DNA of 64,000 bases from Promethearchaeota archaeon (GCA_016839705.1 JAEOTR010000016.1:32001-96000), one strand, 5' to 3'. Positions 13,961 through 25,934 are shown, numbered from the stretch's first letter. The notes: generated by a model not told the origin, from the letters alone. Numbers and translations are program-made.

Positions 13961-15010
13961 TCAATTTACGATGAGCATTTTGTCTTTTGTTTGATCAGTC
14001 AATAAAATTCGATAATATTCTAATTCATTCTTGAAAAAAACTTTTTCTAATTTTCCTTCTACTAGGACGGTTTCTCCTTCCTGAGCATGCTCACAAAAAC
14101 GCGCTCGAAAAGAATTTATTTCTAAAATTTCTTTAAGGCTGACTTTTTTCAAGATTGACTCTTTATCTAGGATTTTTAGAGCATTAATTTTATAAGAGCA
14201 AGGAGTAAATATTGAATCCTTAGAGTCAGTTATTAAAACTTTAGCTTTAATTCTTCCATAATTTTTATATTGATAATCATAAAATGTTCCGTTCCAATCA
14301 TTAGGGCTCTTAATGTACCTTATAAAAAAATTGATGTTATGGAATTTACCTTGATGCAGCTTTCTTTGTTCACTTCTCATAAACTCTTTAAACGATATGT
14401 CTGATCCTCCAACCCTCCAGACATAATGAGATTTATAGTCTTCTAGATTATACATTCTAAATTGATTAGATTCGGTGAAAATGTCTTTTAACGTTCCTTG
14501 AAATATATGGGATGTTTCTGTGCCATATACAATTATATCAATATCTGAAACTTCTTTATTTAAACCGACCATAACTGAGCCAGTAATTCCTATTGAATCT
14601 CTGGAAATATTTCCTTTATATATAAACAATTCACATAAATTTTTGGAACACTTTTCAATGGTAGAAAGATTTTCCTTTTCAAATAATTCTATCAAACAAC
14701 CCCGGGGTGTGTAAACTTTTTTAATATCATTATTAAAAACACTTTGTATTTCCATATCAAGCTCCTTTGAATAAAAGAGATAATTAGGATAGAATCTTCT
14801 TAATAATGAATAGCGCTCATCTAAATTGTAAACTTTTTTATACATAACGCCATTTTTTATTCGATCTCCCTCGGGATGTGGATAAAACCTTAAAAAACAG
14901 ATTTTTCTATCAATTGGGTGGAGTAACCCTTTAACATCAAATATTAAATTAGTTTTTTTAGTTTCAATATAATCTCCTTCAATTCCTTTGGTGTATTCCA
15001 TGAATATCAC
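13961..15010 (-). CDS. Archaeal predicted nucleotidyltransferase (pol-beta fold)
   Basis: GITGS...SDIDIIVYG; N-terminal VKG..HP; C-terminal OB-like VEGKLE. Confidence 0.8.
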   Translation of the reverse strand: MIFMEYTKGIEGDYIETKKTNLIFDVKGLLHPIDRKICFLRFYPHPEGDRIKNGVMYKKVYNLDERYSLLRRFYPNYLFYSKELDMEIQSVFNNDIKKVYTPRGCLIELFEKENLSTIEKCSKNLCELFIYKGNISRDSIGITGSVMVGLNKEVSDIDIIVYGTETSHIFQGTLKDIFTESNQFRMYNLEDYKSHYVWRVGGSDISFKEFMRSEQRKLHQGKFHNINFFIRYIKSPNDWNGTFYDYQYKNYGRIKAKVLITDSKDSIFTPCSYKINALKILDKESILKKVSLKEILEINSFRARFCEHAQEGETVLVEGKLEKVFFKNELEYYRILLTDQTKDKMLIVN

Positions 15011-15029
15011 AGTAAAAATAATTTGATTT

Positions 15030-16166
15030 TTAATATTTTGAAGGAGTTTTAGATTTTATTTTTTGTTTTGGGATGCCCTTTAACTTTCTTAACTCTTTTT
15101 CAAAATTTCTTTTTTCATTAAGAAATCTCTGTTTGTCTTTCTCTAATTTTTCCCTTTCCCGTTTTATTGTACTTTTATCGTTAGATAAGTCTAATTTCTC
15201 TCTTTCTAAACGTCTGAGGTCAATATTTAACCTTTTGAATTTTTCTTCTAATGGGGGTATTTTTTCAGATATGGAGTAGAATTTATTTTCAGATTTAGGA
15301 ATCTTACTTTCTAATTCTTTCATTCTTACCTCTTGTTGTCTTTTTCTGCTTTCAAGACTTTTTACATCATTTTCCACTTTATTCCTATATTTTCTTAGAT
15401 CTTCCTTTTTCTTATCAATCTCTCGGCCTTTCAGGTTTAGTTCATCTTTTTGATAACGTAATTTCTCTCGATTTTCTTTTAGCTTACTTTTTTCATCAGA
15501 AATCCTGTTTTTTTCATCAACTAACTCCCTCTTTAAGTTATTCACTTCTCGATTGAGGGTATCTCTTTCTTTAGTTAAATATTTAATTTCATTTCTTAAA
15601 TCTTCTAATTTATGCTCTAGATCTTCGTTAGTCTTCTCAAGCGCACTCTTTCTTCTTTCCATCCCAGGTATCTTCGTTTTTATATCCTTAAATTGGTTTT
15701 CAATCCTCTGTTTTTCTTGGTCTATTGAATCTTTTTCATTTCCTAACTCATCTCTAAGCTTATCTAACCTTTTCTGAAATCCCTCTAATTGAGCTTTCCT
15801 TTGATTTAATCTATCGTTTTCTTCTCTTTTTTTATCTTTAAATTGTTGTTCTCTTGCATCTAACTCAATTTTTTGTTTTTCTAAGTCATTTTTTGTTTTT
15901 TTAAGACTGTTCTGAATGATATCCCTTTTTTCACGAAGATTTTTTAGTTCAATTTCTTCCGTTTTCCGCTTTTTTTCAAGATCTTCTATATTTTCTCTGT
16001 AATTCTCAATTTGGGTAATGAAATTTTCCCATTCACCCTTTTCTTTATTAAGTTTTATTCTTTCCTTCTTAATCTTTTTTAACAAATTTTTATCAGCAAT
16101 CATGTCACCCTCGTCGTCGGGAGTTTTTTCTCGAATTTGATGTTTGGGAATAGGTTTATCATTCAT
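15030..16166 (-). CDS. Long K/E-rich coiled-coil protein
   Basis: About 330 aa of heptad-like K/E/R/L composition with no globular domain. Confidence 0.8.
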   Translation of the reverse strand: MNDKPIPKHQIREKTPDDEGDMIADKNLLKKIKKERIKLNKEKGEWENFITQIENYRENIEDLEKKRKTEEIELKNLREKRDIIQNSLKKTKNDLEKQKIELDAREQQFKDKKREENDRLNQRKAQLEGFQKRLDKLRDELGNEKDSIDQEKQRIENQFKDIKTKIPGMERRKSALEKTNEDLEHKLEDLRNEIKYLTKERDTLNREVNNLKRELVDEKNRISDEKSKLKENREKLRYQKDELNLKGREIDKKKEDLRKYRNKVENDVKSLESRKRQQEVRMKELESKIPKSENKFYSISEKIPPLEEKFKRLNIDLRRLEREKLDLSNDKSTIKREREKLEKDKQRFLNEKRNFEKELRKLKGIPKQKIKSKTPSKY

Positions 16167-16376
16167 ATTTTTTCGATCATCATCTTATTTTACTAATAAA
16201 TCCATATTAATTCTAATTCTAAAGTGTTTGCCAAAATTTTATAAATTTAGAGTAATTCTTTTCTTTCCTAATTCTATTTAAATATTCTAATTTCCTTTAT
16301 GTATATATATTTATAATAAAAGAGTTATACAGATCATACGTTAATTTAGCTTATTTGACAAGGTTGTGTATTTATA

Positions 16377-16769
16377 ATGGGATTTGACAATGAATATGAG
16401 GAGGGTTTAGAATTTGATGAAGATTTGGAAGAAGATTTAGATGATAAGTTGGATGAAATCCCCTCAGAAATTCCTAGCAAAGATATTAATTCTAAAACCC
16501 CCATCCCAAGGGCTACTTCTGAAGGAAAAAAAATTTCTGTTTACTTTATTTCAACCATCGGACCCGAGAAAAAGCAAAAATTGCTTATTAATAGTGGAAA
16601 TCTTGTTGGAGATATTAAGCAGACAGTAGCAAACTTATTCGCTTTAGATCCAGCTGACTTCTATTTGTCAGCACTAGGGATCACCATGGATGAACAAAAT
16701 CCTTTGAAAGAATATGAAGTAGATGATGGAGACGACATACTTTTAATCCCGGCTAGTATTGCAGGATAA
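16377..16769 (+). CDS. Ubiquitin-like modifier paralogue A (acidic N-tail, ends ...IPASIAG)
   Basis: Beta-grasp pattern (VGDIKQTV...LSALGITM...LKEYEVDDGDDILLIP), close paralogue of 19347..19688, terminal Gly. Confidence 0.85.
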   Translation: MGFDNEYEEGLEFDEDLEEDLDDKLDEIPSEIPSKDINSKTPIPRATSEGKKISVYFISTIGPEKKQKLLINSGNLVGDIKQTVANLFALDPADFYLSALGITMDEQNPLKEYEVDDGDDILLIPASIAG

Positions 16770-16787
16770 TCTCAATTTTATTTTTCT

Positions 16788-17582
16788 TTAATTATTCCTT
16801 TTTCTCGATGGAATCAGAGCAATTTCATCATCATCATCAATATCATAGTTTTGGATTTGCTTATCTTCAGATAGTAAAATTCCCCCTGAAGATAGAAGAA
16901 ATCCCTCCAATTCATAATTAAATAGTACTCCCACTCTTTTTTTAACTGTACTAATTAATTCAGTTGTATCAACAATGATCAACTTAGTAATCTCGCCTGG
17001 TTCAACTAGGGATCTAATGTACACACGGATCTGATCCTTGAGATTAATTTTATTTTTAGGTGGTATATAAAATATTTCCTCATCAGTTTGATCTCGATTC
17101 TTAAGCATATTATCGATTAATGCTTTTCGTTCATCCACATCAAAATAGAGCATTTCTCTAATAAAAAGGATTTTGTCAAGCTTTGATAATCCAAGGTTGT
17201 TTATTTTTCCTAATTCTTCCTTACTAAAAACTGAAAAAATATATTTGCTGATTATTGGAGAATCCTCATAAGATTCATTTGAATCAAGATATTCTTCAAT
17301 TGAAGGCAAAACCTCAAGATATTCATCGATAACATTCTCATCTATCCTATTGAAAGACTTAGTTTTCGGTGAAATTTTCTTATCTCTTATTTTATCATGT
17401 TGATGACCTGTCGATTGGATAACGGTATAGATTGTGCTAGTAGAGAGAACTGCAACACTCCCAATTGTTAGAATAAGAAATAATGGGGTGTTGTTTACCC
17501 CAAACAGGAAATAACTTACGTAAATCAACACAAAAATAGTATAAAGGGTTATAACGCTTAATGTTCTATATTTTTTCTTCAT
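16788..17582 (-). CDS. Membrane protein (2 N-terminal TM) with C-terminal ubiquitin-like domain
   Basis: Two hydrophobic segments, then a C-terminal domain that aligns with both Ubl paralogues (PGE, LSSGG, YDIDDDDEIALIP) but ends SRKRNN with no Gly. Confidence 0.8.
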   Translation of the reverse strand: MKKKYRTLSVITLYTIFVLIYVSYFLFGVNNTPLFLILTIGSVAVLSTSTIYTVIQSTGHQHDKIRDKKISPKTKSFNRIDENVIDEYLEVLPSIEEYLDSNESYEDSPIISKYIFSVFSKEELGKINNLGLSKLDKILFIREMLYFDVDERKALIDNMLKNRDQTDEEIFYIPPKNKINLKDQIRVYIRSLVEPGEITKLIIVDTTELISTVKKRVGVLFNYELEGFLLSSGGILLSEDKQIQNYDIDDDDEIALIPSRKRNN

Positions 17583-17667
17583 AATTTTTTAATAAATTTG
17601 TTGGTCTAATTTTCAAATAAATAACTTAAAATATAAATTCCATTGGAATAAAATTGGAGTTTTTTTT

Positions 17668-18339
17668 TCAATCACCTTGAATTAACTTCCTAACCTTATT
17701 ATACTTCTTAATATCTAATTTGAATAATATTCGATTTTTATCTTTCTCAGTTTCTAATAATTTTAGATTTTCTAGAATATTGACATATTTTTTTATAGTG
17801 TTGTGATTTTTTTTCATACCATTTGCTATTTCAGTGATTTTAAATGGCTTATCTTCATTGGTTAGGAATTCTATTAATTTTAGAACAATATCTTTATTCA
17901 AATAATAATAAAACTTATCCAACTTTGGATTTGAATCATATTCAAAGAAAATCCGATGGTTATTGAGTTTTTCTGACCTGACAAATTTAAATTTTTCTAG
18001 ACAAGAAAGGTGCCATAGTGCTTGATTACTTCCGATCTTAAGAGTTTTCATTATTTCATTAATATTAGACGGATTTTTTTTTATGTAATTATAAATCTCA
18101 TTCCTTTTTGGATGTTCAATGATATTATTCTTCATTAACCGAGTTCCAGGGATGATTATTTTCTTTTTTATCAATGATTTTATTATTAACTCAATTTTAT
18201 TTCGGTTTAAATTAGGATTTAACCTTACCCTGTTACTTATAAATTCTATTATATCAGTGATCGAAAAGAATGTTTTTTTTGTTAGATATTCTTTTACTAA
18301 GCCAAGAACAATAGATTCTAAATTATCCAAGGAACTCAT
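17668..18339 (-). CDS. Multi winged-helix (ArsR-like) DNA-binding protein
   Basis: RNEIYNYIKKNP..INEI...WHLSCLEK and ITEIA....HNTIKKYVNILEN wHTH repeats. Confidence 0.8.
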   Translation of the reverse strand: MSSLDNLESIVLGLVKEYLTKKTFFSITDIIEFISNRVRLNPNLNRNKIELIIKSLIKKKIIIPGTRLMKNNIIEHPKRNEIYNYIKKNPSNINEIMKTLKIGSNQALWHLSCLEKFKFVRSEKLNNHRIFFEYDSNPKLDKFYYYLNKDIVLKLIEFLTNEDKPFKITEIANGMKKNHNTIKKYVNILENLKLLETEKDKNRILFKLDIKKYNKVRKLIQGD

Positions 18340-18602
18340 AAGCCACTTTTAGTTTTTCGTTTCAATATCTTGTTAATACAGTGTAATACTCTCTCTATAA
18401 CAATAGTAAATATATAATATATATTAATAGGCATTCATACAATTTATAATATCATTTCTTTCACCCCCTATCGTATTTTTTTGCAACTATAAAGCTATTG
18501 ATCGCATTTCCTGCTTTACTTTTGCTTTATGAAAAAAGTTTAAATATATATTCAGTAATGTAGTAAAATAATCAATATTTAATCTGTAAAAAGTAATGAA
18601 TT

Positions 18603-19120
18603 ATGGCGAATGGGAAAGGTTTAACCTATTTAGGATTGATTTTAAGATTAATCGGTGCGGGTTTGGGCGGATATGTATTTTTTGATTATATTTAGCTCCA
18701 CTATTAGGATTTGGAGACCCTCCTGCAGAAGGTTCTGAAATAAATTCATACTACGTAGAAACCTACCAAGCAACCCTCACCCTACCTGATACATATGAAT
18801 CCCTTGATGGAATGATAATTTCATTTAATACAACCAAAACAGTTAACTTACACGTATTATATACTGGTTATGTAAGGATTATGACAACCCTTGGATTATA
18901 TGCTCAAATAAAAATCCTTCTTAATAGTACCATATTAACAACTAATCAATATTATGTAGAGGAGATTGGTTTTGTCGTTCAAGAACGATTTGCTGTTAAC
19001 ATGTAAAATTATATCTCTGCGCTACCTCCAGGAAATTATAATGTAACAGTATTAGGGATGTCCGATGATACTTCAACAAGTTTTTTTCAGAACTCACTCT
19101 ATATACAAATTCATACTTAA
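18603..19120 (+). pseudogene. Pseudogene of a signal-anchored beta-rich protein
   Basis: ATG 18603 MANGKGLTYLGLILRLIGAGLGGYVFFDYI, then a -1 frameshift near 18692. Continues LAPLLGFGDP... through the track ORF 18812..19006, past an internal TAA (19004), to ...NSLYIQIHT* at 19120. Confidence 0.75.
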
Positions 19121-19346
19121 ATAATTAATTAATTCAAATTCCTCATTTTTTTTACCTCTATTAATAGTTCTTTATACTTTCCTGAAGATTTATTATCTTC
19201 TTTCTCATATGGGATCATGATACTTTTTTTTTAAATGAAAGAAAAACTACAATTTTATGCCAATTGATTTTATAATACCATTTTAACTCAATTTTATTAG
19301 GTTTTTAATAAAAAAATAAAAAAATAAAAAATTGGAAGTGATGTGT

Positions 19347-19688
19347 ATGAGTTTTGAAGATGAGTTTGATGAGGATTTAGGTGGGGAGAGACCTGTAAAT
19401 TCTAAGACCCCTTCATCTAAAACCCCTTCAGCAGGAAGAAAATTGACATTGTATTTTATGTCAACCATAGGCCCTGGCGAGAAGAAAGAAAAATTAACAG
19501 TGAATGACGGAAATTGCGTTGAGGATATAAAGCAGACATTAGGAAATTTATATGGACTTGATCCTAATGATTTTCATTTATCTTCTGGCGGAGTTACGAT
19601 GGATGAAAATAGCTCATTAAAGGATTACCATGTGAGCGATGGAGACGACATTCTTATGATTCCCGCGAGCACTGCCGGGAAAGCTTAA
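19347..19688 (+). CDS. Ubiquitin-like modifier paralogue B, precursor form (...IPASTAG-KA)
   Basis: Beta-grasp pattern; first gene of the Ubl-E1-E2-JAMM-RING run; ATG 19347 (or 19341) preferred over TTG 19332. Confidence 0.88.
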   Translation: MSFEDEFDEDLGGERPVNSKTPSSKTPSAGRKLTLYFMSTIGPGEKKEKLTVNDGNCVEDIKQTLGNLYGLDPNDFHLSSGGVTMDENSSLKDYHVSDGDDILMIPASTAGKA

Positions 19689-19714
19689 ATATTTTTCTTA
19701 ATATATTATAATAT

Positions 19715-19749
19715 AAGGGCGTTAAGCCCTTCAACTTTTTTTATTTTTT
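19715..19749 (+). terminator. Hairpin plus T-tract between Ubl-B and E1
   Basis: AAGGGC-gttaa-GCCCTT perfect 6-bp stem followed by caac and a long T-rich run. Confidence 0.5.
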
Positions 19750-19761
19750 AAATAAATAATA

Positions 19762-20997
19762 ATGGTAATACTTATGGATAAGAATTCAGAATTTTTCGGA
19801 AAAGAGTTATCAGTGGAAGAGAGAAGTTTGTATGACCGTCAATTTCGTCTCGAGGGATGGTCTCAGAAATTGGTAAAAAATTCGAGGATATTAATTGCAG
19901 GCGTCGGTGGTTTAGGGTGTGAAATTGCTAAAAATCTATCGATGCTTGGTATCGGTCACTTAGATCTCGTTGATTTGGATATTATTGAACATTCTAATTT
20001 AAACCGTCAAATTCTTTTTGCGGGGGCAAAGATCGGAGAACCTAAAGCGGTTGTTGCAGCAAGAAAACTTAAGGACATTAATCCTAATATAGCAGTTAAA
20101 GGTTATCACACCTCTTTAGAGCGATTAAATCCCGCAATCTATCAAGCCGCTGATGTAATAATTGGAGGTCTTGATTCGATGAATACCCGTCTAAACTTGA
20201 ATGCTCAATGTATTAGGTTTAAAATCCCTCTTGTCGATGGAGGTGTATCTGGATATCACGGTCATGTATACACAATCTTTCCTTATCAAAATGCCTGTTA
20301 TGAGTGCAATCCCTTACCCGTCGTAGAGGGTGATGACATGGCGGCTTGTACAGTAGTAGGAATTCCTCGAAAAAGAATCCATTGTGTCTTTAAAGGAGAC
20401 ATGGCATTTAAAGAAAAACTTGATAGAGGTCCCAATCCTAAAAATGTAAATGATATCAAATTCATTCAAAAGGTTGCAAATGAATTAGTAAATAAACATA
20501 ATTTCTTACCTGAATATACGGTAGATGATATTGTAAGAATAATTGATAGACATGATCCGGGAATAATTACGATTAATGCGGTTATTTCCGCCTTACAATC
20601 CCATGAAGCCGTGAAAATTCTCCATTGGAAAAAGGGTCATAAAGGGCTTGGAGAACCAATTCAAAATTATGTGGTCTATAATGGAATAACTATGAAATTT
20701 TATCATATTGAAAAAAAAAGAAATCCAGAATGTTCTCAGTGTGGAAAGCACGTTAGAAGAGTATCAATAAAATTGAACCCTCATTCACCATGCGAGAACA
20801 TAATCAAAATATTAACTAAAAATGGGTTTAAACCTGATCCAGATTCAGAACCAATTCTTACTTTACAAGATTTTAATGATATTAAGATGGTTGATTTAGA
20901 ACAGAATCCAATTGAAAATGGTTTAAGAAATTATGAATTTATAACCGCAGCAGGCTTCAAAGATGGGGAAATTTTTGTAACCTTAAAATTGAAATAA
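19762..20997 (+). CDS. Ubiquitin-activating enzyme E1 (ThiF adenylation domain with catalytic-Cys insert, UBA2/UBA3-like)
   Basis: YDRQFRL, GVGGLG, DLDIIEHSNLNRQ, Zn pairs CYEC/CSQC, catalytic-type ACTVVGIPRKRIHC. Confidence 0.93.
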   Translation: MVILMDKNSEFFGKELSVEERSLYDRQFRLEGWSQKLVKNSRILIAGVGGLGCEIAKNLSMLGIGHLDLVDLDIIEHSNLNRQILFAGAKIGEPKAVVAARKLKDINPNIAVKGYHTSLERLNPAIYQAADVIIGGLDSMNTRLNLNAQCIRFKIPLVDGGVSGYHGHVYTIFPYQNACYECNPLPVVEGDDMAACTVVGIPRKRIHCVFKGDMAFKEKLDRGPNPKNVNDIKFIQKVANELVNKHNFLPEYTVDDIVRIIDRHDPGIITINAVISALQSHEAVKILHWKKGHKGLGEPIQNYVVYNGITMKFYHIEKKRNPECSQCGKHVRRVSIKLNPHSPCENIIKILTKNGFKPDPDSEPILTLQDFNDIKMVDLEQNPIENGLRNYEFITAAGFKDGEIFVTLKLK

Positions 20998-21078
20998 TAA
21001 TTTAACCAAAAAAACCAAATAATTAAAAAAAATAGAGAATAAAAATTATAAATAAAAATAATAAAAAGGTTTGATAAG

Positions 21079-21606
21079 ATGAGTATAAGAAGTAGTCGTA
21101 TTTCCCAAGATTTTGCAGGATTAAAAAAACTGTTAAAGACGGGTACTATAATTCAATTAAAACCATTTAATCCTAAAAAGAAGAGTATAGATCATTTAGC
21201 TATAACTATTAAAGGGCCAAAAGGCACTGTATATGCGGGAGGTGTGTTTAAATTAGAAATGAAATTCCCTTCCCAGTATCCTAGCCAACCCCCTTTCGTT
21301 AGAATGCATACTCCAATTTGGCATCCAAATTTTTGGCCAAAACCGACTGAATATAAGGGACAAAGAAATATATGTCTAGCTTTGGTAGATCCCTCTTTGG
21401 CGGGTAAAAAGGGTGGATGGAGTCCATCAAAAACAGCAGTGACAATTGTTCAAGCAATAATTGCAATGCTAAACACCCGTGGTAAATTTGTTAACCCAAC
21501 TGATGTTTTTAATAAAAAGGCAGCAATTGAAATGATGAAAAATCCTAAATTTTTCGAGAAAAAGGTTAAAAACTTAGTTAAAAAATATGCAAATACGAAA
21601 TGGTGA
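21079..21606 (+). CDS. Ubiquitin-conjugating enzyme E2 (UBC fold)
   Basis: GPKGTVYAGGVF, FPSQYPSQPP, WHPN, catalytic ICL, WSPS. Confidence 0.95.
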   Translation: MSIRSSRISQDFAGLKKLLKTGTIIQLKPFNPKKKSIDHLAITIKGPKGTVYAGGVFKLEMKFPSQYPSQPPFVRMHTPIWHPNFWPKPTEYKGQRNICLALVDPSLAGKKGGWSPSKTAVTIVQAIIAMLNTRGKFVNPTDVFNKKAAIEMMKNPKFFEKKVKNLVKKYANTKW

Positions 21607-22442
21607 TTTCGCTAATGGAAGAAAAAGAATCAGCTAACAGTTCAATTAAAGACGTAATAAAGCAGAAAATAAAAGAAAAAATAAAAAAGGAATTATTAGA
21701 TGAAATACGTGAAGAGCTTCAATTAGAAGAAGAAGAATTAACTGAAGAAATTATTTCAATGCTTACACAAAGAGTTTCTAACGGTCTAAATATAAAACAT
21801 TCGAAGGCGCCCATCGTTAATATTTTAGAAAAAAAAGTCATAGAACCTCAATTAGAGCAAGAAGCCCAAAAGGAAACCTACATTACAATAAAGGCAACTC
21901 TTAAAATAGCAAGTCACGCTATAAAATATGCTAATCCTAATATACCTAAATCAAACTGGATTGAAGTTATAGGTATTCTCGCTGGAAAAATAGATAAAAA
22001 GACTGGTTTACTAATAATTGAAGATGCATATCCTGTTGGACATGGCAATGCAATCCATGCAAAAATGGATGATAAGAGAAATCGTAGAACGGGTTTTATA
22101 AAAGCTTTTGAAATAATCAAGAAAAATAAATTAGATATTTGTGGGTGGTATCATTCTCATCCTTGCTATGGATGTTTTATGTCACCCGAAGATTTTGATA
22201 CTCAAGCGAGATATCAGAAATTATGGGATAAAGCCGTTGCACTTGTTATCGATCCGTGCCTTATTGATGGAACTTCAACAGGTTTTGAGATTTATCAGGC
22301 AGATTTGAAATCAAAAACTTTCTATCCTCTATTATATGGAATTAAAGGATCGTTAGATATCCGTATGCTACCCGACATTTTAGAATTTATGAATCCAATT
22401 ATTCAAGGGAAAGCGGCTTATTTAGAATATGATAAAGATTAA
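21600..22442 (+). CDS. JAMM/MPN+ isopeptidase (Rpn11/CSN5-like) with N-terminal charged helical extension
   Basis: EVIGILAG...GWYHSHPCYGCFMSPEDFDTQ...ALVIDP; overlaps the E2 stop. Confidence 0.93.
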   Translation: MVISLMEEKESANSSIKDVIKQKIKEKIKKELLDEIREELQLEEEELTEEIISMLTQRVSNGLNIKHSKAPIVNILEKKVIEPQLEQEAQKETYITIKATLKIASHAIKYANPNIPKSNWIEVIGILAGKIDKKTGLLIIEDAYPVGHGNAIHAKMDDKRNRRTGFIKAFEIIKKNKLDICGWYHSHPCYGCFMSPEDFDTQARYQKLWDKAVALVIDPCLIDGTSTGFEIYQADLKSKTFYPLLYGIKGSLDIRMLPDILEFMNPIIQGKAAYLEYDKD

Positions 22443-22471
22443 ATTATATTATTGATGGTGGTTATTAAACC

Positions 22472-23677
22472 GTGGCTAAAACTAAGGTAATAATTTTACT
22501 GCTGATTGCATTTGCAATTATCGGCATAATACACGGTGCCATTCTAAATTCAGTTAATGTATTTGTAAGTTGGTTTTTAATAGGGATATGGTTAGTATTT
22601 ACATTTAAAGTTATAAAGAATATAAAGCAACATCGTGAATATCGTAGTCCACACAATACAGCATTTTTTACTATTGGTCCTGTTTTGATTGGAATTTTTT
22701 ATTCAATTTGGGGAAATTTTACAGGATTATTAGGAGAAAATCTCTTAATAAGCACAGATTTATATTTAAGTTGGTGGAGTATACTATTTGGGTTTCCATA
22801 TGTGTTTTATAGTTCAATCTCATTATACCGTTGTTTTAAAAAATACCGAGTAATTTATTTTGGGACAAAATCTGTAAATGCCCGTAAATTTGGCTATTTA
22901 TTAGGCATATCGGTTATATTTTTCATATCTATCTATTGGATTAGTTTCTATTCATTGATCGATTTTTATGAATCTCTTATAATACCACTTCATTTTTTAC
23001 TAGATCTTAATCTTCTAATACTGCTTGTGAGCACTATTCTAATAATAATTATTGCAGGATTATTTGGGTCACAGACTCAATTACCCCAATTAACAAGAGA
23101 TTATATAGCACAGCGTAGGAATAGATTAAACCAACTAACATCACCTAGAAGAAATAGTACACCTAATAGATATAGGGAAAGTGTTCGCAATACCACAAGG
23201 TCAAATCCAACACCTTCAGCTAGCACGGTAACCCGTACATCAAGATCAGTGAACCATTCATCCCGATCTACACCAACCGCACGAAGACGTTCTACAACTA
23301 CAAGAACTAAAACAAGTTCTCGAACTGTGAGTAGAGGGCCAACAGGGACACAGGTAAGAAAGAAACAGAGTACTAAAAAAATAACTAACTTTAATATATA
23401 TAAACCTAAAGCCGCGCGTTTATCATCTGAGGACTTTAAGTGTATTTTTTGCTTTAAATTACCAAAAATTCCTGAGGATAACGGTAGAGGTATAATTTTA
23501 TGTCCAAATTGTAGATACCCTGCTCATGCAGATGAATTTAAGGATTGGTTACAAAGTTCCAACCTCTGTTCTCGATGCAGTGCTCCTATTCCTACAACCT
23601 ATAAGAGAAATCCAAGAATAATACCGATTAAAACTTATTTAGTAATTGTAAAACATTTTATTGGCAATAAGAGATAA
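22472..23677 (+). CDS. Multi-pass membrane protein with C-terminal variant RING finger (putative E3 ligase)
   Basis: About 6 TM segments, an S/T/R-rich linker, then C-x2-C-x16-C-x2-C-x4-H-x2-E-x3-W-x6-C-x2-C. Confidence 0.8.
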   Translation: MAKTKVIILLLIAFAIIGIIHGAILNSVNVFVSWFLIGIWLVFTFKVIKNIKQHREYRSPHNTAFFTIGPVLIGIFYSIWGNFTGLLGENLLISTDLYLSWWSILFGFPYVFYSSISLYRCFKKYRVIYFGTKSVNARKFGYLLGISVIFFISIYWISFYSLIDFYESLIIPLHFLLDLNLLILLVSTILIIIIAGLFGSQTQLPQLTRDYIAQRRNRLNQLTSPRRNSTPNRYRESVRNTTRSNPTPSASTVTRTSRSVNHSSRSTPTARRRSTTTRTKTSSRTVSRGPTGTQVRKKQSTKKITNFNIYKPKAARLSSEDFKCIFCFKLPKIPEDNGRGIILCPNCRYPAHADEFKDWLQSSNLCSRCSAPIPTTYKRNPRIIPIKTYLVIVKHFIGNKR

Positions 23678-23700
23678 ATTGGTAATAAATATTTAAGAAT

Positions 23701-24645
23701 CTAATTTCCTGATTTTACCTTTTTTTTTAGTTCCCCTATTGTTGTTTTTAACTCAGCATACACATTATGAGGATGGATAGATTCAAAACTTTCAATTTTA
23801 AATTCTATTTTAAAATCCTCTTCTAGATTTGGGAACTCTCTTAAAATAAAATTTTTTGCCATTTCTCTAATGACATCCTCTGAAAACAAAGGTTTTAAAT
23901 GAGCGCTTCTTACTAGTTCGGCTTCTTCAGGGCGTTTCAGCACAGATTGTATTTTGCCGCTCATAGATTCTTCTATTACATCAATGATGTCTAAAACGTC
24001 AATTTTTTGGCCTGTCAAATCCTTTATCTGAACAATAATCGTACCATTTGACCTTTGATTATGTGAAGAGAAGGGAAAGATATTGATGAGTTTTTTAAGA
24101 TCTTCCTCAGAAACATGTATATCTTTTCTGGTTTTGACAACTTCGGTTGCATATTCTTGAGACATTTCTTTTGCGCAAGGACACACTGTCATTCCTACAG
24201 CAGTTGCCCCAATATAATAAGTGTATTCAATTTCTCCAGATGATTTTCTTTTAGCTTTAACAAAAGATAATATATCATATGATTTTTGGATATTTCTAGT
24301 ATTATTTTCCCGAACTTGAACTATAATCTTTCCTTCTAATTTAACTTCCGCTTTGGAAGTATAAGGGTGTCTTTCTAACAACTTTTTAATGATTCTATCG
24401 CCTACTAATTCTATTGTCGGGGTTGGCTTGTATATTACCTCATTTATGACTTCTTCAATAGTTTCGGAAGTCCGCGACATGTGAATACCTCGTTGCTGGG
24501 CAGGAAGAGCAATTAATGCGGAGATTTTTGGGTAAAACGAGTATTTTTTATTCTCTTGTACTATTTCTACTTTTTTCTCTAGCTCAACTATTCCAACCTT
24601 GTCAATAGCGATGTCTATTGCTGACCCAGAATCTTGTAAGTCCAT
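23701..24645 (-). CDS. mptA: GTP cyclohydrolase MptA/FolE2 family
   Basis: RGIHMSR, TVCPCA, HNQR, LKRPEE, FSED..RE, ESIHPH. Confidence 0.92.
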   Translation of the reverse strand: MDLQDSGSAIDIAIDKVGIVELEKKVEIVQENKKYSFYPKISALIALPAQQRGIHMSRTSETIEEVINEVIYKPTPTIELVGDRIIKKLLERHPYTSKAEVKLEGKIIVQVRENNTRNIQKSYDILSFVKAKRKSSGEIEYTYYIGATAVGMTVCPCAKEMSQEYATEVVKTRKDIHVSEEDLKKLINIFPFSSHNQRSNGTIIVQIKDLTGQKIDVLDIIDVIEESMSGKIQSVLKRPEEAELVRSAHLKPLFSEDVIREMAKNFILREFPNLEEDFKIEFKIESFESIHPHNVYAELKTTIGELKKKVKSGN

Positions 24646-24764
24646 TTTGAATTTAGGAATTTTGTATCACCAGTAACAAAAAATATTTTATTTAGTTCTA
24701 ATCTTAAAAAAGATTAGATATAATATAAAATAATTTCAAAAAAATTGAATATCTTAAGAATTCG

Positions 24765-25934
24765 ATGCCATTAAAAAGCATTTTTAGCGAGTATGCATTA
24801 ATTGGAGAGGATTTAGAACTTAAACAAGATGTTTCAATAGAAATTGATGAAAATGGAATCATTTCAAAAATAACGTATACAAATCCAGAGGATTCCTTAA
24901 TAAGTTTTGAAAGAAATCATTGCTATTTACTAATACCGGGTTTTATTAATTCTCATACTCATATTGGAGATAATTTTGCGAAAGAACTAGGTTTTAATAA
25001 AGAATTAACGGACATAGTAGCTCCACCATTTGGTCTTAAACATAAACTACTTAGACAAACACCAAGAGATGTTATTATTAAAGGGATTAAAAATGCTGCT
25101 TCAGAAATGCTCTCTAACGGGATTACTTGCTTTATTGATTTTAGAGAAGGTGGAGTCGAAGGTGTAAATCTTATTAAAGAGGCTTTAGAAATCTCTCCAA
25201 TAAATTGTTTAATCTTTGGTAGGTTTATGGATGAAAGCGAAATAGAATTAATTTTTAATCTAGCTGATGGAGTGGGATTATCTAGTTATAAGTTCATATC
25301 TGATTCAACTAAGACCTTTGTAGAGGAATCAAAACAAAATTATAAAAAATTAATTGCTTGCCATTGTGCTGAGAAAAATCGTTTTCCTGAATTAATCAAT
25401 AGAGTACTTACTGACAATTTAGTTGATATCATCATTCATGGTACGAAATTTACTAAAGAAGATTTAGGGAGGATTCAAAGAGCGATGAAATCACTTGTTT
25501 TATGCCCCCGATGTAATGGATATTTTGGAGTAGGATTTCCTCCAATTATAGAGATACTAAAACTTGGAATTCCTATATCTTTAGGTACAGACAATTCGAT
25601 GGTAAATAGTTCAGATTTATTTGAAGAAATGCGTTATCTATATAGAATTTCTAGAATACTTGGTAATTATGATAAAACAATACAATTAACATCAAAAGAA
25701 CTCTTAAAAATGGTGACAGTGAATGCTGCAAAAAATTTTCGTTTAGGGATTGAACGTGGTTCAATTTCGGAAGGCAAATTCGCAGATTTTTTTGCAGTTG
25801 ATTTAAAAGAACCAAATTTTTATACACTCGACTTAAATGAAAGCAATGTTTTTGATGTGATTGTACAAAGAACAGGAACAGGGAATATTAAAAGAACTTA
25901 TATAAGAGGAGAAGTAGTTTTTGAAAGAAACTGA
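24765..25934 (+). CDS. Metal-dependent amidohydrolase (deaminase-like)
   Basis: PGFINSHTHIGD, HCAE, HGT, LGTDN, GKFADF. Confidence 0.88.
   Translation: MPLKSIFSEYALIGEDLELKQDVSIEIDENGIISKITYTNPEDSLISFERNHCYLLIPGFINSHTHIGDNFAKELGFNKELTDIVAPPFGLKHKLLRQTPRDVIIKGIKNAASEMLSNGITCFIDFREGGVEGVNLIKEALEISPINCLIFGRFMDESEIELIFNLADGVGLSSYKFISDSTKTFVEESKQNYKKLIACHCAEKNRFPELINRVLTDNLVDIIIHGTKFTKEDLGRIQRAMKSLVLCPRCNGYFGVGFPPIIEILKLGIPISLGTDNSMVNSSDLFEEMRYLYRISRILGNYDKTIQLTSKELLKMVTVNAAKNFRLGIERGSISEGKFADFFAVDLKEPNFYTLDLNESNVFDVIVQRTGTGNIKRTYIRGEVVFERN

Follow-up and report, generated by a model that had tools for sequence, protein, structure and literature searches.

Within a 64,000-nucleotide stretch of DNA from a Promethearchaeota archaeon (GCA_016839705.1, JAEOTR010000016.1:32001-96000; hereafter the window), five co-oriented genes on the plus strand (19347-23677) encode a ubiquitin-like modifier (Ubl1), an E1 activating enzyme, an E2 conjugating enzyme, an Rpn11-like JAMM metalloprotease, and a transmembrane protein that ends in a RING-type zinc finger (TM-RING). 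These genes are best read, with a probability of roughly 60%, as a working Ubl-conjugation cascade whose ligase lies in the cytoplasmic membrane. The genes present, their catalytic motifs, the fold class, the logic of the topology, and the patterns of conservation and synteny are what the analysis shows; every biochemical step, the substrates, and the physiological role are inferred.

The literature places the root of the eukaryotic ubiquitin system in the ubiquitin-type operons of Asgard archaea. The archaeal operon type that unites ubiquitin, E1, E2, JAMM, and RING proteins is already known; the present operon departs from it in its membrane RING architecture and in the Ala-Gly tail of its modifier. 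In the published accounts that were found, the only Asgard-type ligase described is a soluble RING protein of small size, and the tag ends in Gly-Gly; the preprint by Liu et al. is silent on any RING. The surveys and reviews consulted contain no description of a membrane RING ligase or an Ala-Gly tail, though an earlier figure may depict the gene. If a six-helix membrane ligase does belong to the most widely conserved Asgard operon, ubiquitin-type membrane tagging, which is the logic of endoplasmic reticulum-associated degradation (ERAD), receptor down-regulation, and sorting by the ESCRT (endosomal sorting complex required for transport) machinery, would predate eukaryotes. Membrane-located tagging is probably older than eukaryotes, and nothing in the locus links the operon to ERAD or to UFMylation. 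As the parts of the operon are small and clearly delimited, and as the operon is present in a closed 6.0-Mb genome of the same order, reconstitution and proteomics are feasible.

Modifiers and conjugation enzymes

The host is an Asgard archaeon with a genome of 3.36 Mb and 31% G+C, whose relatives are labelled Promethearchaeota, with some Loki bins among them; the NCBI labels of close relatives are inconsistent, with Thor-, Hod-, Odin-, and Hermod- names standing on near-identical Loki-type proteins. An open reading frame (ORF) read of the window recovered, in place, all seven genes of a preliminary description, namely the five above, a second modifier gene (Ubl2), and the gene of a membrane-anchored ubiquitin-like (UBL) protein (TM-UBL). 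The central proposal of that description, a complete modifier, E1, E2, and JAMM set encoded co-directionally with a polytopic RING-type protein, is borne out by the ORFs, domains, catalytic residues, and fold, and the two further UBL genes that it placed upstream are indeed paralogs of Ubl1 (62% identity for Ubl2 and 29% for TM-UBL). The intergenic gaps from Ubl1 through E1, E2, and JAMM to TM-RING measure 73, 81, -7, and 29 nt, the JAMM start overlapping the E2 stop, a spacing that fits one operon.

Ubl1 (19347-19688, plus strand; 113 aa) is a modifier precursor in which an acidic N-terminal tail bearing two SKTP motifs leads into a beta-grasp core of the ubiquitin family (28.2 bits against PF00240 in Pfam, cut-off 25.4) and then into a C-terminus, IPASTAG, whose final Gly is the candidate mature Gly111 and is followed by Lys-Ala (PASTAGKA). 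Ubl2 (16377-16769, plus strand; 130 aa; E 2e-43 against Ubl1) has an acidic N-tail with one SKTP and is encoded already in mature form, its stop codon following directly on the Gly of PASIAG; an upstream Ubl copy is found in relatives as well. Among approximately 40 orthologs from more than 10 families, the tail always reads [LI][IV]P-x-STAG plus 0-3 residues, and Gly-Gly closes none of them. Since about half of these orthologs terminate exactly at the STAG Gly, that residue is taken as the mature end, and the single-Gly termini originally ascribed to the modifiers hold. The accompanying suggestion that Ala-Gly remnants could be sought by proteomics is unworkable with trypsin, which would yield no such remnant because the last Lys or Arg lies 19 residues ahead of the terminal Gly. 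A third modifier ending in PASTAG (78 aa, without an acidic or SKTP N-tail) is encoded away from the operon on contig C43 (L064:1465-1701).

The E1 gene (19762-20997, plus strand; 411 aa; ThiF 200 bits) encodes a nucleotide loop (GVGGLG) at residue 47, CxxC pairs at residues 179 and 324, and a catalytic residue, Cys196, that aligns with the catalytic Cys of UBA3. UBA3 is also the nearest solved relative (E 2.8e-37), followed by UBA2 and UBA1, likewise catalytic subunits of canonical E1s from eukaryotes, and the enzyme is far more distant from MoeB-type and UBA5-type enzymes (UBA5, E 1.6e-14) than from these three. The E2 (21079-21606, plus strand; 175 aa; UQ_con 93 bits) carries HPN at residue 82 and Cys99, the latter aligning to the active-site Cys in Ubc15 and in UBE2R; its nearest solved relatives are Ubc15 and UBE2R/G, and its identity across Loki families, within the order, is 72-90%. 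In the JAMM protein (21600-22442, plus strand; 280 aa; JAB 48 bits), Glu122 is combined with an H-S-H-x7-S-x2-D motif that begins at residue 185, and the nearest solved relative is CsRpn11 (6fjv, E 7e-15), the Caldiarchaeum Rpn11 homologue that processes pro-ubiquitin (PMC6043591). The locus accordingly carries the marks of an archaeal ubiquitin operon: an E1 adenylation domain with a catalytic Cys, a UBC-type E2 with HPN and Cys, and a JAMM motif.

The membrane protein and its zinc finger

TM-RING (22472-23677, plus strand; 401 aa) comprises about six hydrophobic helices, a linker, and a C-terminal RING-type zinc finger. Its full length gives no Pfam match at E <= 0.1, its homologs are all annotated as "hypothetical protein", and its best-conserved part is the last 90 residues. 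The designation RING is the one element of the preliminary description that standard domain searches did not bring out. The finger (23426-23596, plus strand) is delimited by conserved ligand columns, sub-threshold Pfam matches, and fold matches. In an alignment of 14 finger sequences from four families (A1), C324, C327, C344, C347, H352, E355, W359, C366, and C369 are invariant, and the candidate zinc ligands are C324, C327, C344, C347, H352, (E355), C366, and C369, in the order C4-H-(E)-C2. An essential role for Glu355 as a zinc ligand was considered and dropped because one homolog has Ala there. In RING E3s, an Ile after the first ligand and a Trp in the helix are E2 contacts; the corresponding positions here are Ile325, which is nearly invariant (I14 in A1), and the invariant Trp359 (W48 in A1).

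Searched alone, the finger matches Prok-RING_1 in 13 of the 14 A1 members, zf-RING_16 in 12, and zf-RING_2 in seven, always below the Pfam threshold (best E 1.3e-3, 5e-4, and 3e-3, respectively). A VIA search with the finger model returned RING or U-box structures in all 50 top places (Z 3.7-5.6), the majority being E2-bound structures of active ligases, and the Foldseek list, which is led by IFT-A C-terminal zinc fingers (E 0.016, TMq 0.55), continues with GATOR2/SEA RINGs, U-boxes, EL5, Rad18, RING1B, Arkadia, and the Hrd1 RING. Because both lists are dominated by RING and U-box structures and the finger has these sub-threshold Pfam RING matches, a RING/U-box-type fold is accepted for the modelled finger, with modest scores.

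The membrane domain (residues 1-198; 22472-23065, plus strand) is predicted from hydropathy and an AlphaFold2 (AF2) model (predicted local distance difference test score, pLDDT, 83.8) to consist of six helices and a short, cytoplasmic beta-hairpin. Against solved folds, Foldseek and VIA gave only weak and heterogeneous helical matches (VIA Z <= 7.8), so no fold is assigned, and an ESM Atlas search with this domain returned nothing usable. The ensuing linker (23066-23425, plus strand) is a low-complexity segment of about 120 aa, rich by composition in Ser, Thr, Arg, and Lys (T19, R17, S17, and K8 per 100 residues), and its length differs between homologs. Positive charges occur at the N-terminus of the protein and after helix 6; on the basis of these positive-inside residues and the even number of helices, the linker and finger would lie in the cytoplasm, where the E2 is.

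Several observations weigh against the proposed cascade and its membrane ligase. No Pfam RING gathering score is reached by the finger, its model has moderate confidence only (pLDDT 68.7), and the fold matches, taken absolutely, score low (Z <= 5.6; Foldseek E >= 0.016). Ligand positions 1-5, 7, and 8 are occupied invariantly by six Cys and one His, and position 6 is Glu, or Ala in one homolog; moreover, the linchpin Arg after the last Cys is missing, and Ser replaces the usual Pro of C-P-x-C. The closest single structural neighbours are the IFT-A zinc fingers, which are structural and not catalytic. Finally, searches of four genomes from the same order, two of them closed, did not recover the operon.

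Of the other explanations, the one that survives best, albeit an unlikely one, holds that the cascade is real and that the membrane protein is not its catalytic E3; the finger would then be a structural or docking element that anchors E2, JAMM, or Ubl, or the protein would be the main substrate or receptor. The prominence of the IFT144/WDR19 C-terminal zinc fingers among the top Foldseek and profile matches (E 0.016-0.06, TMq 0.55) is consistent with such a role, as are the ligand position occupied by Glu or Ala and the absent linchpin Arg, and an extra canonical small RING protein in Heimdall-type loci (zf-RING_2, 32.5 bits) could be the true E3. This explanation is countered by the fact that Loki operons have no second RING gene, by the retention of the E2-contact Ile and Trp, and by a VIA list whose 50 top matches are without exception RING or U-box structures, mostly active, E2-bound ligases.

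Conservation and the upstream module

Of the 161 genomes in the class, 134 hold a single match to a profile of the RING domain; in a sample of 301 genomes from the phylum, 197 gave matches, and one large family lacks the domain altogether (0/76). Searched against 1.84 billion representative proteins, the same profile retrieved only 121, nearly all of which carry the domain C-terminally in a protein of 350-450 aa, pointing to a narrow family with a fixed architecture. Gene order was examined in 27 loci from Loki-type, Heimdall-type, and other families (f1-f5, f7, f10, f15, f19, f21, f27, and f33). In every one of them, TM-RING follows JAMM directly downstream as an ORF of 350-430 aa that encodes four to six hydrophobic helices, and it clusters with E2, E1, and a Ubl ending in STAG, the two loci without an E2 being cut by contig ends. 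The order in f10, a family that carries Heimdallarchaeota names in a protein search, is E2-JAMM-TMRING ... Ubl-E1. The membrane domains of Loki-type proteins are homologous to those of Heimdall-type, f19, and f27 proteins (hhalign 95%, E 2.4e-8, 140 columns). The synteny of TM-RING with JAMM, E2, and E1, whose lack in relatives would have refuted the preliminary reading, extends to 27 of 27 distant loci in more than 10 families, and what had been presented as a variant is not special to this genome; it is a widely conserved Asgard operon, Heimdall-type genomes included.

The absence of the operon from two closed genomes of the same order indicates that it is dispensable there. The four operon-less genomes of the order retain only an E2 paralog of 40% identity, one of them together with a broken RING remnant. 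In a closed genome of 4.36 Mb, a 41-residue RING-domain remnant with a stop codon is present (L029:10199-10321) and no orthologous E2 was found, which suggests that the operon was lost recently from this genome.

No further RING gene occurs inside the operon in Loki loci. In a Heimdall-type locus (L048:9401-9994), the gene that lies two genes downstream of TM-RING encodes 197 aa with a canonical zf-RING_2 domain, whose 32.5 bits exceed the threshold, so that RING proteins of both kinds are present in Heimdall-type loci. Directly downstream of TM-RING, one family of the class has the gene of a small GTPase of the Ras family (168 bits; L057:7298-7885).

The same distribution bears on a very unlikely reading, in which the operon would be an anti-virus defence system of the Bil kind or of the Cap2/Cap3 kind found in cyclic oligonucleotide-based antiphage signalling systems (CBASS), attaching the Ubl to viral or signalling proteins. 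Bacterial Bil operons do have the same Ubl, E1, E2, and JAMM content, and the E1 adenylation domain is weakly similar to Cap2 models (55 bits). The E1 is, however, far closer to UBA3, UBA2, and UBA1 (132 bits), and PADLOC gave no matches for E2, JAMM, Ubl, or TM-RING, so that no defence model is recovered. Defence islands are usually without a fixed site, a single copy, or conservation across classes, whereas this operon has a fixed site among housekeeping genes, occurs once per genome, and is kept across classes, with the aforementioned E2 identity within the order. The flanking genes encode FtsZ, a FolE2-type cyclohydrolase, an amidohydrolase, and a RibD_C protein, and no ESCRT, proteasome, or Cdc48 genes were found at the locus.

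Upstream of the operon, in the opposite orientation, lies a module of two genes. TM-UBL (16788-17582, minus strand; 264 aa) has two N-terminal hydrophobic helices, predicted to form an N-in membrane hairpin, a helical middle, and a C-terminal UBL domain (24.3 bits against PF00240, E 2.6e-5; E 8e-14 against Ubl1) that ends in IPSRKRNN. As this terminus has no Gly, TM-UBL cannot be conjugated, and the protein is a membrane-anchored UBL as first described. Its companion (17668-18339, minus strand) is a double winged-helix (ArsR-like) gene, a candidate regulator with Pfam matches to HTH_5 and HrcA_DNA-bdg and NCBIfam matches to ArsR/SdpR, which stands upstream of TM-UBL in the same orientation and is divergent from the Ubl1 operon.

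Full-length TM-UBL homologs are confined to family f1, where they occur in 35 of 35 genomes of the genus and in most genomes of three other genera; outside f1, the UBL part alone finds matches, and these are on modifier genes. Among the 80 closest loci, 53 have a full 7-kb flank, and in 50 of these TM-UBL and the winged-helix gene lie directly upstream of Ubl1 and another Ubl usually stands beyond the pair; the winged-helix gene always travels with TM-UBL, and in a few genomes the module is far from the operon. The adjacency of TM-UBL to the E1/E2 operon, the other synteny condition of the preliminary description, thus holds in close relatives; TM-UBL is a family-level addition and does not belong to the ancestral set. 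In another genus of f1, a paralog of the RING protein that is soluble, measures 222 aa, and has no membrane helices is encoded directly after a Ubl gene and beside the winged-helix and TM-UBL genes (L060:8634-9302), so that the upstream module of that genus has its own RING.

Proposed pathway, related systems, and neighbouring genes

In the proposed membrane-located cascade, JAMM would trim the two-residue extension of Ubl1 and expose Gly111, and Ubl2 and the third genomic copy would be made already mature. The UBA3-like E1 would adenylate the terminal Gly and load the Ubl onto Cys196, from which it would be handed on to Cys99 of the E2. TM-RING, a six-helix protein whose N-terminus would lie inside the cell and whose linker and RING would face the cytoplasm, would bind the charged E2 via Ile325 and Trp359 of its finger and promote transfer to lysines on proteins located at the membrane or close to it; JAMM may also strip the tag. 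The [ST]KTP motifs are candidate acceptor or docking sites, through which Ubl chains may form and the coiled-coil protein described below may be modified. In f1, the additions would be a membrane-tethered, non-conjugatable UBL and a winged-helix regulator, the UBL probably serving as an adaptor or decoy for UBL-binding partners.

The best-characterized comparison is the operon of Candidatus Caldiarchaeum subterraneum, which encodes ubiquitin, E1-like, E2-like, srfp, and Rpn11 proteins and has been reconstituted in vitro (PMC5654768; PMC6043591). Both systems combine, in one operon, a precursor modifier of the ubiquitin family, an E1 that has a catalytic Cys domain, a UBC-type E2, a JAMM protein resembling Rpn11, and a RING-type protein. 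They differ in that the RING protein of Caldiarchaeum is small and soluble and its ubiquitin ends in Gly-Gly (PMC5654768), whereas the Asgard ligase candidate is a six-helix membrane protein of 401 aa, an architecture that recurs at all 27 loci, the Asgard modifier ends in Ala-Gly and has an acidic [ST]KTP N-tail, and the ligand order of the finger is C4-H-(E)-C2. The ESCRT-linked Helarchaeia cascade, whose E1 and E2 are joined by a soluble RING E3 and whose pro-ubiquitin carries di-Gly (bioRxiv 10.1101/2023.07.25.550441; Hatano 2022, PMC9192718), is likewise of the Asgard ubiquitin type, with a processed precursor and a RING E3, and in both cases a link to membrane biology may be proposed; the Helarchaeia system is clustered with ESCRT genes, whereas the present operon has no such neighbours.

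The preliminary description also likened the locus to eukaryotic membrane systems. In layout, TM-RING does resemble Hrd1/gp78 and MARCH/RING-CH ligases, which pair a multi-helix membrane domain with a cytoplasmic RING-type finger. The RING-CH finger has Cys as ligand 4 and His as ligand 5, an order that the TM-RING finger probably shares; in MARCH proteins, however, the RING is N-terminal. The parallel with Hrd1/gp78 is seen in the layout. The TM-RING finger, with ligands in the order C4-H-(E)-C2, is not a RING-H2 (C3H2C3) finger, Hrd1 chains match the membrane domain only weakly (Foldseek E 9.6, TMq 0.33-0.37), and no Hrd3, Der1, or Cdc48 genes are found at the locus. With the UFM1 system, the operon shares a modifier whose single C-terminal Gly follows a small residue and whose short extension is removed by a protease. 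The resemblance does not amount to membership: the Ubl genes give nothing against the Pfam Ufm1 model (PF03671) at E <= 1 and score as ubiquitin family, the E1 is nearer to UBA3 (2.8e-37) than to UBA5 (1.6e-14), and the E2 is a canonical HPN-type UBC protein and not UFC1. As the operon Ubls fall outside the Ufm1 family, the Asgard Ufm1 homologues of PMC12962969 are probably other proteins.

TM-UBL invites a similar comparison with HERP and TMUB1/2, with which it shares a non-conjugatable UBL, a membrane tether in the form of a helical hairpin, and an association with a membrane RING ligase, by encoding or by action. The domain order of HERP and TMUB proteins is the reverse of the hairpin-first, UBL-last order of TM-UBL; in addition, the domain in TM-UBL is a recent paralog of the modifier that the operon itself encodes (29%), and the gene is limited to one Loki family. 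The ERAD and UFMylation analogies may thus be taken as resemblances of layout and not as memberships, and a quality-control function of the operon could be suggested by analogy.

A lipid-conjugation pathway was also considered. ATG8 is attached to phosphatidylethanolamine, and in an analogous scheme the Ubl would be joined to a membrane lipid head group, with the membrane protein as an E3-like platform. The single terminal Gly, the membrane-embedded E3 candidate, and the acidic, disordered N-tail of the Ubl are compatible with this scheme, which is nevertheless highly improbable given that the E1 resembles UBA3 and not ATG7 (39.9 bits against the ATG7 model, cut-off 571), that the E2 is a canonical HPN-type UBC protein and not of the ATG3/ATG10 type, and that the modifier scores as ubiquitin family. 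A sulfur-carrier pathway of the MoaD/ThiS kind in place of protein tagging is scarcely credible: the E1 does belong to the ThiF/MoeB superfamily, but it falls far under all MoeB/ThiF equivalog cut-offs and its catalytic-Cys insert aligns to UBA3, and the operon co-encodes E2, JAMM, and a RING-type protein and has no rhodanese domain or cofactor-synthesis genes.

Beyond the cascade itself, a more specific and doubtful suggestion may be put forward, namely that the operon, common to Loki- and Heimdall-type archaea, is a prokaryotic forerunner of membrane RING ligase pathways. Its polytopic E3 would then mark proteins in the membrane or close to it with an Ala-Gly-ended ubiquitin relative, destining them for extraction, degradation, or sorting, and [ST]KTP would select the sites in the way that a consensus lysine motif does in SUMO conjugation. 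All operon Ubls in the Loki-type, Heimdall-type, and other families sampled have an acidic N-tail followed by one or two [ST]KTP. The motif recurs in a coiled-coil protein (15030-16166, minus strand; 378 aa) that ends in KSKTPSKY in the window and is a conserved neighbour and possible partner or substrate; it adjoins the Ubl in several families of the Loki class and always bears one to three terminal [ST]KTP (L021, L022, L054, L057, and L061). In the host genome as a whole, [ST]KTP occurs 31 times in 1.17 million ORF residues, approximately the level expected by chance, and four of the 31 occurrences are in Ubl1, Ubl2, and the coiled-coil protein. In a genome-wide search no further protein carried two or more copies, and hence no substrate list could be drawn up. 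From its placement in these sequences, [ST]KTP may be a recognition or acceptor site for the system. The motif is also seen in two unrelated operon neighbours of other families (L053:6614-7363 and L056:3699-4643).

Rfam and tRNA scans of 15000-25000 gave no matches. The 1-kb gap between the winged-helix gene and Ubl1, which measures only about 275 bp in relatives, contains at 18603-19120 the remnant of a small gene, with a hydrophobic anchor, a frame change, and an in-frame stop, and is not an RNA. Elsewhere in the host genome, contig C30 carries a separate second cluster (L003:1119-3140) of a JAMM protein, a 294-aa ThiF-type E1, a 192-aa UBC-like E2, and an 85-aa Ubl ending in VIGGL, a paralog of which, ending in VIGG, is encoded on contig C13. 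In other Asgard families, two proteins whose genes adjoin the operon, a HerA-like ATPase and a VWA-domain protein (L054:14072-15814 and L024:9691-11448), have a copy of the Ubl as their C-terminal part, with the endings SSRAG and PASTAG plus a tail.

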